This document shows positions 4,170 to 7,385 of a DNA stretch of 11,573 nt, in pieces. Under the pieces are notes generated by a model. The model worked only from the letters and a program-made list of their open reading frames with translations, was not told the origin of the DNA and did not search any database. Positions within the stretch are counted from its first letter, which is position 1. Every line of letters begins with the position of its first letter. The DNA is from a virus. Location: the UHGV virus genome UHGV-1580203, one strand, 5' to 3'. A program made the position numbers and the translations under genes.

Positions 4170-4460
4170 AAAAAGAGCGGTGCCAGCCGGAAGCAAGTGT
4201 ACAAACTGGTACCGCCAAAGCAGTGGCTGTTGTGGTGCCGGGTGCCTCCCGGTGCCTGGCGAAGGTTGCACACCAGGCGGGTGGGTATCCACAGAAGGTC
4301 GACTGTCAGCCTCAACCTTAACCCGCGTGCGCTGAGCCGCATTCACCACAACGCTAAGGATTCTCTCTGGTTGAAAATACTTAGCTGTTATGTGCCTGCT
4401 TTTAGCCACATCAGGCGAGGTGGACCTGGTTATTCCCCAACAACAAGGATTCGGTTAATC

Positions 4461-4489
4461 TTGATACCCCCAATAACATGGTGATTATT
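4461..4489 (+). promoter_or_regulatory. Candidate promoter for the 167-aa plus-strand gene (-35-like TTGATA, A/T-rich -10-like GATTAT/TTATTT)
   Basis: TTGATA at 4461-4466 and a -10-like hexamer 16-18 bp downstream, ending a few bp before the ATG at 4494 (transcript would be near-leaderless); by eye only. Confidence 0.3.
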
Positions 4490-4493
4490 TAAG

Positions 4494-4997
4494 ATGGACA
4501 AATTTGATAGAAGTGCACAAAGGCAGTTGTTACAAATACTGTATGATGCTCATCCTTATGAAATTTCTGATGATGCGTTGCAGTCTGTTCGTGACGCATT
4601 TGGAGATGATAATGTCCTAATTTCGAACTTAATTTATCTCGAAGAACATGGCTTGATTAAGAATGCTCTTGATTATTACTTGGATGGCATAAATATAAAT
4701 ATTCCTGAATTAAGAATTACTAAAGATGGAATTGATTTCATTCGTGATGATGGAGGTCTTAAAGCTATTCTTGGGATTATGACAATAAGATTGCATGATG
4801 AGACTCTCTGTGAACTTGAACGTATCATCAATAGTTCTACTTCTGCCACGACTGAAGATAAGAAGAAATTACTCTCTCAGCTTCGAACGCTTCCTGCCGA
4901 CGCCATAAAACAGCTGACGATTCGATTACTTGGTCAGGGGCTTGACCATCTGCCGGACGTATTTCACGTAATTCAAAAAGCCCTCCATTCTCTGTAA
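4494..4997 (+). CDS. Orphan 167-aa protein, unknown function (AT-rich moron in the immunity-adjacent slot)
   Basis: Uninterrupted 167-codon frame through visibly A/T-rich DNA with A/T-ending codons, opposite in orientation to the flanking early-left operon; followed by a plus-strand intrinsic terminator at 5175-5198; no family recognised. Confidence 0.6.
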   Translation: MDKFDRSAQRQLLQILYDAHPYEISDDALQSVRDAFGDDNVLISNLIYLEEHGLIKNALDYYLDGININIPELRITKDGIDFIRDDGGLKAILGIMTIRLHDETLCELERIINSSTSATTEDKKKLLSQLRTLPADAIKQLTIRLLGQGLDHLPDVFHVIQKALHSL

Positions 4998-5130
4998 ATT
5001 CTGATTCTGGTCGGATTAGACAGAATCGTCCCCATCCGACCTGCTTACTAAGTAGAATCCAGAATTCGTCTTGTTGGTTGGTGCTGATAAAAAATCCATT
5101 AGGATGAACGTAAGCACAGAATATGACCAT
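4837..5130 (-). CDS. Possible small protein (97 aa) antisense-overlapping the 3' end of the 167-aa gene; uncertain
   Basis: ATG at 5130 preceded by AAAGAGGGTTCT (GAGGG RBS, about 5-nt spacing); first ORF downstream of the putative pL; overlaps the convergent gene by about 160 nt, so it may be a shadow ORF. Confidence 0.25.
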   Translation of the reverse strand: MVIFCAYVHPNGFFISTNQQDEFWILLSKQVGWGRFCLIRPESEFTENGGLFELREIRPADGQAPDQVIESSAVLWRRQEAFEAERVISSYLQSWQK

Positions 5131-5159
5131 AGAACCCTCTTTTGTTACGGGGATACTAA

Positions 5160-5174
5160 GATTGTTAAAGAGCT
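5160..5174 (-). promoter_or_regulatory. boxA-like element (AGCTCTTTAACAATC on minus strand) immediately 3' of the antisense hairpin
   Basis: Minus-strand sequence GCTCTTTAACAAT is a 13-nt contiguous match to the rrn-type boxA consensus as I recall it (TGCTCTTTAACAATTTATCA); lies on the pL-transcribed strand directly after the 5198-5175 hairpin. Confidence 0.45.
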
Positions 5175-5198
5175 AAGCGTCCTGTAGGGCGCTTTTTT
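5175..5198 (+). terminator. Rho-independent terminator for the 167-aa gene transcript
   Basis: Stem AAGCGTCC (5175-5182) / GGGCGCTT (5187-5194) with one G-U pair, loop TGTA, then run of six T (5193-5198). Confidence 0.6.
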
Positions 5199-5364
5199 GT
5201 TGCTAACGAATCATCCTGGACTTCATATGCCCCAGGCGGCTACTTCGTGGGCGTCCTGCCTGTTCGTTTTTGACATTTACTGACTGCTTACGACACATGC
5301 ACCGTGTTGCAACCAGATTTTGTTGTAATCCTGTAGTTGGTCTGGAACAAAAGATAAAATTAAA

Positions 5365-5401
5365 TTGCGAGATATGCAAGTGATATTTGCGAGATATGCA
5401 A
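5365..5401. promoter_or_regulatory. OL-like operator pair: two identical 15-bp sites TTGCGAGATATGCAA separated by 7 bp, with overlapping leftward promoter (pL-like)
   Basis: Seen: exact direct repeat at 5365-5379 and 5387-5401; same TTGCGNGATANGCAA pattern as the site at 6169-6183 in the cI-cro intergenic region; minus-strand TTGCAT -35-like hexamers lie within the sites. Confidence 0.6.
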
Positions 5402-5410
5402 ATTTATAGG

Positions 5411-5435
5411 TAATAAAAAGCCACCTTTCGGTGGC
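5411..5435 (-). terminator. Rho-independent terminator downstream of cI
   Basis: On minus-strand RNA: GCCACC-GAAA-GGUGGC (6-bp stem, GNRA-type tetraloop) followed by UUUUUAUUA; 20 nt downstream of the cI stop. Confidence 0.65.
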
Positions 5436-5455
5436 CGATGGATGGGATATTGAGG

Positions 5456-6148
5456 TTAATTATGTCTCTTAAGGGTTTGCGACTGACTGATTAAGACCTT
5501 TCCAAAGACCATGAATCGGTGTTCGTTTTCGCTAGTAATTCCCCATTCACGGTAAATCTGGTTATCAGAAATCACCAGCAGTTTGTCAGGAATCATTTGA
5601 AGTCTTTTAACGTATATTTTGTCATCAAAACCAAAGACATATATACCATCACCATCAAACTGATTGATGCTGACATCAACGAAGATGAGATCTCCTGGCT
5701 CAATGGTTGGACACATACTGTCCCCACGAACGTTGATAACTTTGATGTGATTGGCTGGTCGTCCGCCGAACATTGATACAGCATTATCAGTTCTGTATTC
5801 GATGGCATGAATCACATCAATGACATCACCGCCCTGGATAAGGCCATTTCCCGCACTGGCACTGATATCCAGCATTTCAATACGGAACACATCCTTCACC
5901 TGCGCAACATCCTCATTATTACTGTTTTTATATACAGTATTACTTTTGTGGGCAGAGGTAAAGAGATCAGCAATATCAACACCTAAGCTCTTGGCAATAT
6001 TACTCAGTGTTTGTTCGGTAAATTGTTTTTGCTTACCCGTTTCTAAGCGCGAGATGTTCGCCGCATCTACTCCTATCGCTTCAGCGAGATCGGCGATTTT
6101 CATGTTCTTCGCTTGGCGAAGTTGTCTGACTCGGTTTCCTATGTTCAT
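5456..6148 (-). CDS. cI: CI-type prophage repressor (N-terminal HTH, C-terminal LexA-like S24 autopeptidase domain)
   Basis: 230 aa; N-terminal HTH (VRQLRQAKNMKIADLAEAIGVDAANISRLETGK); C-terminal GDSM (catalytic Ser) and VKRL (catalytic Lys) motifs of the S24 family; divergent from a cro-like gene. Confidence 0.93.
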   Translation of the reverse strand: MNIGNRVRQLRQAKNMKIADLAEAIGVDAANISRLETGKQKQFTEQTLSNIAKSLGVDIADLFTSAHKSNTVYKNSNNEDVAQVKDVFRIEMLDISASAGNGLIQGGDVIDVIHAIEYRTDNAVSMFGGRPANHIKVINVRGDSMCPTIEPGDLIFVDVSINQFDGDGIYVFGFDDKIYVKRLQMIPDKLLVISDNQIYREWGITSENEHRFMVFGKVLISQSQTLKRHN

Positions 6149-6245
6149 GCGTTTATTACATTTCTTTATTGCGTGATAAGCAAATCAACTTGCGCAAAAT
6201 AATTGCGTGAAATAACATGCATAACGCGCAATATTTGGAGGGCGT
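6149..6245. promoter_or_regulatory. OR region with divergent PRM/PR-like promoters and about three operator sites
   Basis: Sites fitting TTGCGNGATANGCAA at 6169-6183 (best), 6203-6217 (weaker) and 6217-6231 (inverted); minus-strand -10-like TGTAAT (6155-6160) placed so the cI mRNA would start at or near its AUG (no SD upstream of cI); GGAGG RBS at 6237-6241 for cro. Confidence 0.65.
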
Positions 6246-6506
6246 ATGCAATCACCATTACGAAATGTGCGTAAGGCGCATGGTTTCACTTTGCAGCATG
6301 TTGCTGCGGGTGTTCAAGTCAATCCAGCGACGTTGAGTCGTATTGAGAGGCTGGAGCAGATTCCATCTATCGAGCTTGCAGAACGTTTAGCCAATTTTTT
6401 TAAGGGTGAAGTCAGCGAAATGCAGATTCTTTATCCGGCACGTTTTCAATCTAGCCAAAACCAGAATGGGTTTAAACCACAGGAACAGGAGGTGAACCGT
6501 GGGTAA
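6246..6506 (+). CDS. cro: Cro-like HTH transcriptional regulator (XRE family)
   Basis: 86 aa; HTH segment GFTLQHVAAGVQVNPATLSRIERLEQ; first gene rightward of the operator region, divergent from cI; GGAGG RBS. Confidence 0.88.
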   Translation: MQSPLRNVRKAHGFTLQHVAAGVQVNPATLSRIERLEQIPSIELAERLANFFKGEVSEMQILYPARFQSSQNQNGFKPQEQEVNRG

Positions 6507-7050
6507 GCATCACTGGAAAGTAGAAAAACAGCCTGAGTGGTACGTGAAAGCTGTCAGAAAAACTATCGCAGCGTTGCCGGGGGGGTACGCTGAAGCTGCT
6601 GACTGGCTGGATGTAACAGAGAACGCATTATTTAACCGCCTTCGTGCCGATGGCGATCAGATTTTCCCGCTGGGATGGGCAATGGTTTTGCAACGTGCTG
6701 GTGGAACTCACTTCATTGCTGACGCTGTGGCGCAGTCTGCAAATGGCGTCTTTGTGTCTCTTCCTGATGTCGAGGATGTGGACAACGCCGATATCAACCA
6801 ACGCCTGCTGGAGGTCATTGAACAGATCGGCAGTTATTCAAAACAGATTCGTTCAGCAATTGAAGACGGTGTAGTGGAACCGCATGAGAAGACAGCAATT
6901 AACGACGAGCTGTACCTCTCAATTTCGAAGCTGCAGGAGCATGCAGCACTGGTCTACAAAATCTTTTGCGTTTCAGAAAGTAGTGACGCCCGCGAGTGTG
7001 CAGCTCCGGGCGCCGTGGCGTGTCGTGACTGTGGAGAAACTAACGCATGA
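6499..7050 (+). CDS. CII-like or YdaT-like regulatory protein candidate (function by position only)
   Basis: 183-aa ORF starting at GTG 6499 (RBS AGGAGG upstream), overlapping the cro stop; position immediately after cro is where cII-type or YdaT-type proteins sit; the CDS is clear but the family assignment is weak. Confidence 0.75.
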
Positions 7051-7385
7051 ACAGTTTAACAACACACTACCGTCGCTCGCAACTGATTGCGCTTCCTGTA
7101 CCGGGTGGAAAAGCGAAGGTGGAGTATTGCTATGCAGTAAATGTACCAGGTGACAGGGAAATTGTAACCCACAGCTTTGCTGAGTGGGCTGTGGGTGATT
7201 TCAACCGGCAGAAGGAGACAGTCCTTTGCGACAAGTTAACCGCTGGTTCAAAGATCACTACGGAGTGCCCGTCAGAGTCATTCGTTGGGAGCCGGAAACA
7301 CAACGAGTTATCTACCTCCGCGAAGGCTATGAGCATGAGTGCTTCAGCCCGCTCGAACAGTTTCGTCGTAAATTCAGGGAAATAG
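7047..7385 (+). CDS. Hypothetical ORF (112 aa); 3' half likely not coding in this frame
   Basis: ATGA overlap with the upstream stop supports a start at 7047, but the C-terminal third ([22 protein letters not shown]) is low-complexity while an alternative frame looks protein-like from about 7199. Confidence 0.3.

Follow-up and report, generated by a model that had tools for sequence, protein, structure and literature searches.

The immunity region of the virus genome UHGV-1580203 carries several copies of a 15-bp site on both sides of its repressor gene cI, and we consider it highly probable that these copies are operators of the CI repressor in an ordinary lambda-like switch. The same sites are very probably also operators for the 86-aa (amino acids, aa) Cro protein. 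The DNA analysed here, 11,573 nucleotides long, is referred to as the window; judged by its sequence it is an E. coli/Shigella lambdoid prophage with an immunity region of the SfII type, and the segment under study (5365-6231) comprises the leftward gene at 5456-6148 plus both of its flanks. The putative sites of the left (OL) and right (OR) operator regions and the two regulatory genes are given below, with a strand for the genes only.

5365-5379: OL1, putative promoter-proximal operator, TTGCGAGATATGCAA; exact match, with an equivalent beyond the cI terminator in diverse relatives
5387-5401: OL2, putative second operator, identical to OL1; exact match
6169-6183: OR site A, at the OR3-like position nearest cI, TTGCGTGATAAGCAA; exact match
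6190-6204: OR site B, at the OR2-like position, TTGCGCAAAATAATT; degenerate, only the left arm TTGCG intact
6217-6231: OR site C, at the OR1-like position, TTGCGCGTTATGCAT on the minus strand; inverted, 2 mismatches
6267-6281: candidate site D, at cro codons 8-12, GTGCGTAAGGCGCAT; TGCG-N5-CGCA core intact
5456-6148, minus strand: cI repressor gene, 230 aa; HTH_3 N-terminal domain and Peptidase_S24 autocleavage domain (Pfam, translation)
6246-6506, plus strand: cro, 86 aa; HTH_3 (Pfam, translation), annotated as cro in SfII

Over the whole window the pattern TTGCGNGATANGCAA is matched exactly at 5365-5379, 5387-5401 and 6169-6183, always on the plus strand, and in 200 dinucleotide-preserving shuffles of the window the number of exact matches was zero in every shuffle. 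An earlier reading of the region, made from the letters only (the sequence-only reading), had described OL as two identical copies, 22 bp apart and in the same orientation, and this is borne out by the exact matches, the distance being 22 bp both start to start and centre to centre. The same reading had credited OR with one strong copy. The exact match at 6169-6183 stands, but the count was too low, since the site at 6217-6231 is kept in nearly all loci that share the recognition helix of this repressor and a further candidate lies within cro. Direct inspection also revealed a weak copy at 6203-6217 with the left arm TTGCG only. The tally for OR in the window is two good sites, one half-site and one intragenic candidate, and OL has two sites in the window as well as in nearly all relatives; the arrangement of three operators per side that is seen in lambda, 434 and P22 is found neither at OR nor at OL. 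Repeated palindromic sites do, as predicted here, overlap the rightward promoter (PR) and the promoter for repressor maintenance (PRM), with a second set placed over the leftward promoter (PL).

Comparison with relatives redefines the site itself. The family consensus is an inverted repeat, [T/A]TGCG-N5-CGCA[A/T], that is, a palindrome of 5+5 positions, so that the description of the site as only partly palindromic is true of the window copies, with their TTGC...GCAA arms, but not of the family. In relatives that are ~90 % identical in DNA sequence, the arms TTGCG and GCAA are invariant and the centres vary (OL1 of mEp460, for example, is TTGCGCATTATGCAA), and the inner 'G-ATA' that had been included in the 15-bp consensus has to be dropped, the centre being free to vary. 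Among the same relatives the OL spacing ranges from 22 to 24 bp; the spacer between the two sites is variable, at 7-9 nt, and the arms are fixed. In the SfII reference the two OL copies differ by 1 nt. When 83 viral and genome loci with a 96-100 % identical CI were compared over window positions 5340-5440 (loci L012-L014 and L092-L171), 58 distinct versions of OL were found, the changes being concentrated in the site centres and in the inter-site spacer, and the exact duplicate was a minority form. The operator grammar of direct repeats that had been proposed does not survive this comparison: the unit is the inverted repeat TTGCG-N5-CGCAA, and exact identity of the OL copies is limited to a few lineages.

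More distant relatives retain the same arrangement. In an ST64B-like Salmonella phage, two Klebsiella phages and phage Eeyore, with CI proteins that are 83 %, 70 % and 67 % identical, the OR region gives an ungapped alignment, with clean TTGCG-N5-CGCAA palindromes at the equivalents of 6169-6183 and 6217-6231 and often also at the equivalent of 6190-6204 and inside cro; two more palindromes lie beyond the cI terminator. A scan of a genome collection returned 80 loci, and the motif was sought in the 61 that matched best (L012-L072). The recognition helix xxxN(I/V/L)SR(L/V)E(T/R)G is carried by 38 loci with an overall CI identity of 41-100 %, and the motif is located at -35 and -83(/-84) from the cI ATG in nearly all of them, as well as downstream of cI; the loci that bear it are all those of subfamily 1 together with L034-L048 and L071 of subfamily 2. 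Where the helix is a different one (QAAIQKIETG, QPTIWRLTSG and others; 16 loci), the motif is absent from those offsets.

The density of the motif follows the same division. If no more than one mismatch is allowed, the 22 loci of the closest subfamily have 84 sites in their OR/OL zones vs 1 elsewhere, a ~500-fold difference in density; the corresponding counts are 21 vs 3 in the second subfamily, and 0 vs 3 in loci with other helices. In an unbiased scan of all inverted repeats with 4-nt arms and gaps of 2-11, the top rank was taken by TTGC-N7-GCAA, with 40 occurrences in 5.5 kb of OR/OL zones vs 1 in 50.7 kb of background. These observations are strong indirect evidence that the motif is the operator of this repressor family. 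The comparison with phages of similar repressors, which the sequence-only reading had proposed as a check, has turned out in favour of its suggestion that the sites serve CI and Cro: the same palindrome occurs at the same offsets from cI in ~38 diverged loci, and its absence where the recognition helix differs is in agreement with the proposal that the sites define immunity specificity.

The individual OR sites differ in how they are conserved. Site B, near-invariant as TTGCGCAA, is intact in 20 of 21 subfamily-1 loci and less constant in subfamily 2; its right arm is good (1 mismatch) in the Klebsiella, Pantoea and Eeyore relatives. Site C always ends in ...CGCAT and not in ...CGCAA, because the last two bases of the PR -10 element are the first two of site C.

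It was also seen that the central pentamers of sites A and C trade places between SfII-type phages and those of the mEp460 type (L003-L006), the arms remaining fixed: in the window TGATA is at site A and CGTTA at site C, and mEp460 has CGTTA at A and TGAT(A/G) at C, by which the affinity hierarchy of the two sites may be swapped. The second repressor subfamily, ~48 % identical and with the helix SDVGNLSRLERG, comprises L034-L048 and L071 from Pantoea, Erwinia, Enterobacter, Xenorhabdus and Yersinia; it has the same OR geometry with ATGCG-N5-CGCAT, its OL sites lie directly side by side (15 bp apart), and there is no site in cro.

Three promoters can be predicted in the two regions that flank cI, and each of them takes its -35 element from an arm of one of the sites.

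5351-5379, minus strand: predicted PL; -35 TTGCAT at 5374-5379, 17-bp spacer, -10 TATCTT at 5351-5356, start at ~5344
6155-6183, minus strand: predicted PRM; -35 TTGCTT at 6178-6183 (inside site A), 17-bp spacer, -10 TGTAAT at 6155-6160
6190-6218, plus strand: predicted PR; -35 TTGCGC at 6190-6195 (site B), 17-bp spacer, -10 TAACAT at 6213-6218, start at ~6225

The -35 element of PL is the right arm of OL1 read on the minus strand, and a TATNNT is situated exactly 17 bp after the OL1 TTGC(A/G)N arm in nine diverse loci, as read by eye. PR is kept as TTGCGC-17-TAA(C/T)AT in ungapped alignments of relatives. For PRM, +1 is predicted at the first base (A, 6148) of the cI ATG, with TGTAAT at -12..-7 from that A, 6 nt before the ATG, and TTGCNN at -35..-30. 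The suggestion that TGTAAT is the -10 element of a leaderless cI transcript finds support here, as TGTAAT at this position, TTGCNN 17 bp upstream and the lack of a Shine-Dalgarno (SD) sequence recur in 16 of the 18 distinct upstream regions of subfamily 1 on which conservation was counted. The reading frame is closed by a stop three codons before the cI ATG and the N-terminus MNIGNR is conserved, so the cI start at 6148 is sound; a leaderless PRM transcript is a plausible and the simplest reading. As a related observation, cI is annotated 15 codons (45 nt) short in mEp460, Stx2a_1447 and 1720a-02 (L003, L004 and L005), starting at an internal ATG and giving a protein of 215 aa; the probable cause is that no SD or other ribosome-binding site marks the true start. 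The omitted stretch (window 6104-6148), with the conserved N-terminus MNIGNRVRQLRQAKN, belongs to the helix-turn-helix (HTH) domain.

If the sites are operators, the switch could operate in the following manner. A repressor dimer would contact both arms of TTGCG-N5-CGCAA, the five central base pairs not being specified and at most tuning affinity. OL1 would cover -35..-21 of PL, with OL2 two helical turns upstream, and as OL1 supplies the PL -35 element, bound repressor would occlude PL. On the right, site B would cover -35..-21 and site C -8..+7 of PR, and site A would cover -35..-21 of PRM. CI at site C, at OL1 and OL2, and at site B via cooperation with site A would silence the lytic promoters, and excess CI, or else Cro, at site A would silence PRM. 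The use of the sites by both proteins is suggested by their predicted recognition helices, DAANISRLE in CI and NPATLSRIE in Cro, which share A-x-(I/L)-S-R-(L/I)-E. Protein binding, the order of filling, the promoter assignments and the 5' end of the transcript are in this scheme what we infer from sequence.

Several observations weigh against this interpretation and should be set beside the evidence above. When 2-3 mismatches are tolerated, the number of sites over the whole window is not above chance, and the signal therefore lies in the exact and near-exact copies and in their clustering in the intergenic regions flanking cI. Site B is only half a site in the window. A sigma-70 consensus scan of 5100-6400 returned no promoter, because all three -35 elements match at only 3 of 6 positions, and we infer PL, PR and PRM from conservation, not from score. 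The N-terminal domain of CI and Cro gave no BLASTP alignment with each other, so the specificity that the two are predicted to share is argued from a few helix residues. Arms that double as -35 elements would be conserved for promoter reasons alone. Finally, our literature searches returned no paper describing these operators, nor their binding or transcript data.

The concern about promoters can be taken to its extreme, where the TTGC arms would be only the -35 elements (TTGCNN) of PL, PR and PRM and no repressor-specific operator would exist. The right arm of OL1, the right arm of site A and the left arm of site B do coincide with predicted -35 elements; however, conservation is just as strong in the partner arms, which lie outside any -35, and in whole sites remote from every -35 (OL2, site C at the start of PR, and site D within cro). 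The motif also vanishes where the repressor helix is changed, though those loci still need promoters. We regard this explanation as very improbable. It is scarcely credible, too, that the sites bind another protein, for instance a CII-like activator or a host factor. Lambda CII recognises TTGC-N6-TTGC, the arms found here contain TTGC, and a CII-like gene (Phage_CP76) adjoins cro, but the half-sites are inverted (TTGC-N7-GCAA) and not direct repeats of the TTGC-N6-TTGC kind, the CII encoded here is of the CP76 family and not of the lambda type, and the sites track the CI helix across loci and flank cI as OL and OR do in lambda. A lambda CII site (TTGC-N6-TTGC) was rejected on spacing and orientation.

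Two further alternatives accept the sites as operators and differ in how they would be used. One follows the logic of lambda, with CI at site B activating PRM and site A acting as a weak OR3. The order A-B-C between divergent promoters mirrors OR3-OR2-OR1, and sites A and B are 21 bp apart, a distance fit for a cooperative pair. The centre of lambda OR2 is at about -42; that of site B, however, is at -49 relative to the predicted PRM start, site B is degenerate in the window, and site A, which covers the whole PRM -35 element, is the best consensus match at OR (a match in sequence, not a statement of affinity), all of which make lambda-like activation of PRM rather unlikely. The other alternative gives a function to the exact identity and shared orientation of the OL copies, such as orienting an asymmetric binding. 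The copies are indeed identical over 15 bp in the window, and close relatives have an imperfect TTGCA arm on the same side in both OL sites. Against this, the SfII copies differ by 1 nt, the exact duplicate is a minority among the 58 OL versions in 83 loci, and among more distant relatives the imperfect arm has no consistent orientation; a functional direct repeat at OL has, in our judgement, little to recommend it.

On its layout the system is a previously unannotated relative of the lambda, 434 and P22 switches, whose defining arrangement it shares. As in lambda, cI and cro are divergent, CI has both a DNA-binding and a LexA-like S24 cleavage domain, palindromic operators are predicted over PR and PRM with a second cluster beyond cI that would control PL, and there is no SD before cI, which makes a leaderless PRM transcript plausible. 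The differences are equally clear. The HTH is of the HTH_3/434 type and not of the lambda type, the putative operators measure 15 bp (TTGCG-N5-CGCAA) and not the 17 bp of lambda, and OL has two sites where lambda has three. At OR the middle site is degenerate and the cI-proximal site fully covers the PRM -35; a candidate extra site is present in cro, no N is recognised and CII is of the CP76 family.

The repressor and Cro of phage 434 use operators of 14 bp, ACAA-N6-TTGT, whose centre is known to tune affinity. The present system shares with 434 the fold family, the 434 repressor being a weak PDB match, and the combination of short conserved outer arms with a variable, non-contacted centre; it differs in the arm sequence and in the residues of the recognition helix. 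An OL with only two repressor sites is known from the Shiga toxin (Stx) phage 933W. The context of Stx phages is common to both, as the operator type described here is shared with Stx2a 1447, WGPS2 and phiSTEC1575-Stx2k, whereas the repressor and operator sequences of 933W are unrelated.

These results offer a concrete operator definition (TTGCG-N5-CGCAA) and a promoter map, both predicted, for an immunity type that is common in prophages of E. coli, Shigella and Salmonella and that covers SfII, mEp460, ST64B-like phages and the Stx2a/Stx2k-converting phages 1447, WGPS2 and phiSTEC1575. Since the recognition helices are identical and the operator arms are shared, SfII, mEp460 and several Stx2-converting phages are predicted to be mutually immune, and such cross-immunity would bear on superinfection, prophage stability and Shiga-toxin induction.

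Candidate site D deserves separate consideration, as it lies within a coding sequence. An equivalent TTGCG-N5-CGCA(A/T) is found in most subfamily-1 relatives, at -133/-134. In a synonymous-site comparison of ~15 distinct cro genes, which form a small and phylogenetically related sample, Leu8 is always encoded by TTG (or replaced by Val GTG), Arg9 always by CGN and Ser11 always by TCG (or replaced by Ala GCG). Third positions in the spacer of the site vary freely, and the other Leu, Arg and Ser codons of these genes use many synonyms. This pattern points to constraint at the level of DNA on site D. An RNA hairpin in place of an operator would also explain the constraint and is a weaker alternative. 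The site is lacking in two relatives with a different Cro N-terminus and in the second subfamily. In a Pseudescherichia metagenome-assembled genome (L017), the cro frame is absent or disrupted and the OR sites are kept, including TTGCGCGTTGCGCAT at the position of site D.

On the other side of cI, the terminator and a structured RNA in the predicted PL leader are located as follows.

5419-5436, minus strand: cI intrinsic terminator, between cI and OL; annotated in SfII and kept in relatives
5198-5270, minus strand: structured RNA of 73 nt, with P1 of 6 bp, an invariant core AGGCAGGACGCCCACGAAGUAGCC and a P3 hairpin of 5 bp; covariation

In the window the RNA lies ~75 nt beyond the predicted PL start, and in most relatives it is found within about 10-15 nt of the PL -10. 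It is also present in heteroimmune phages, namely SfV, ST64B-like phages, Eeyore, Pantoea AH07, Yersinia YeP1, Pectobacterium ZF40, SPN3UB and mEp237, and in 10 or more phages it is always found downstream of the repressor gene on the repressor/PL strand (loci L002 (SfV), L007, L010, L016, L020, L021, L174-L178 and L179-L258). The three-helix structure has 97.8 % of cells paired, compared with at most 45 % in slid controls, and compensatory changes were observed in 10 of the 14 pairs. At least 120 IMG/VR contigs yielded 94 distinct versions, nearly all of which retain 13-14 of the 14 pairs, and the covariance-model evidence amounts to 93.8 bits. A scan of 4400-7100 against Rfam at E<=1 gave no match, this RNA included, and no second copy was found on the PR side of the window by pattern or covariance model. 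The RNA could be regarded as a candidate new RNA class. An open reading frame for MKSRMIR within it was rejected as a gene, because its AUG is missing in an ST64B-like relative in which the base pairing is kept.

The closest known likeness is with the put elements of HK022 and HK639, which are likewise structured PL-leader RNAs in lambdoid phages without an N homolog, and the short strings CGAACNGG and CAGGAUGA are common to the two. The architecture differs, as the leader RNA has a closing stem, P1, around two hairpins and put has two side-by-side stems. Identity with HK022/HK639 put was rejected, for the covariance model R1 matches nothing there, including the annotated putL-like RNA of HK639. 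Possibly the leader RNA is a put-like antiterminator of N-less phages; one paper speculates on an antitermination mechanism of such kind for a related phage. If it is a new class, it possibly acts on transcription elongation, and it may be a more valuable lead than the operators.

Taking these parts together, we can only tentatively suggest a system that is no copy of lambda, in which the -35 elements of the early promoters are operator arms, a fourth operator lies in cro and an OL-controlled PL feeds a previously undescribed structured RNA. Site D would then be used by CI or Cro as a roadblock or loop anchor, and the PL-leader RNA would replace N as a processive antiterminator in phages of the SfV, ST64B and ZF40 types.

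The wider locus agrees with the type assigned to the prophage. Shigella phage SfII matches positions 5205-6600 with 99.5 % identity in its cI-cro-cII region; for mEp460, the Stx2a phages 1447 and WGPS2, phage 1720a-02 and phiSTEC1575-Stx2k the identity is ~90 %, and many E. coli genomes carry prophages matching the whole window. The CI of the window is 100 % identical to that of SfII. Its Pfam scores are 1.2e-11 for HTH_3 and 6e-19 for Peptidase_S24, and in its translation the serine of GDSM, the lysine of VKRL and an Ala-Gly within SASAGNG can be seen, in keeping with a lambdoid repressor having an N-terminal HTH and a C-terminal LexA/S24 domain. The divergent cI (minus strand) and cro (plus strand) are separated by 97 bp, again the lambdoid layout, and cro is preceded by the SD GGAGG at 6237-6241. 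A PDB search returned no close solved relative of CI or Cro; for CI the nearest structure has an E-value of about 1e-4. In the public records of SfII-type immunity regions no operators are annotated.

The gene after cro (6499-7050), which overlaps cro by 8 nt, is a CII-like activator of the CP76 family (Pfam Phage_CP76 1.3e-13; phrog_101); SfII is said to be without CII in a published comparison (PMC3851460). The window has no recognisable N gene, and SfII is reported in the SfIV paper to be without N. The genes left of OL gave no match to a PADLOC defence system. Homology to SfII stops at ~5205, next to the leader RNA and a few bases past its first plus-strand position. To the left of this point, 4494-4997 on the plus strand holds a 167-aa gene, convergent with PL, which matches phrog_3983 (function unknown) over its full length, has no Pfam match and has its own terminator hairpin at 5175-5194. 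The layout of 4494-5194 resembles an insertion of the moron type that separates PL from the early-left genes.

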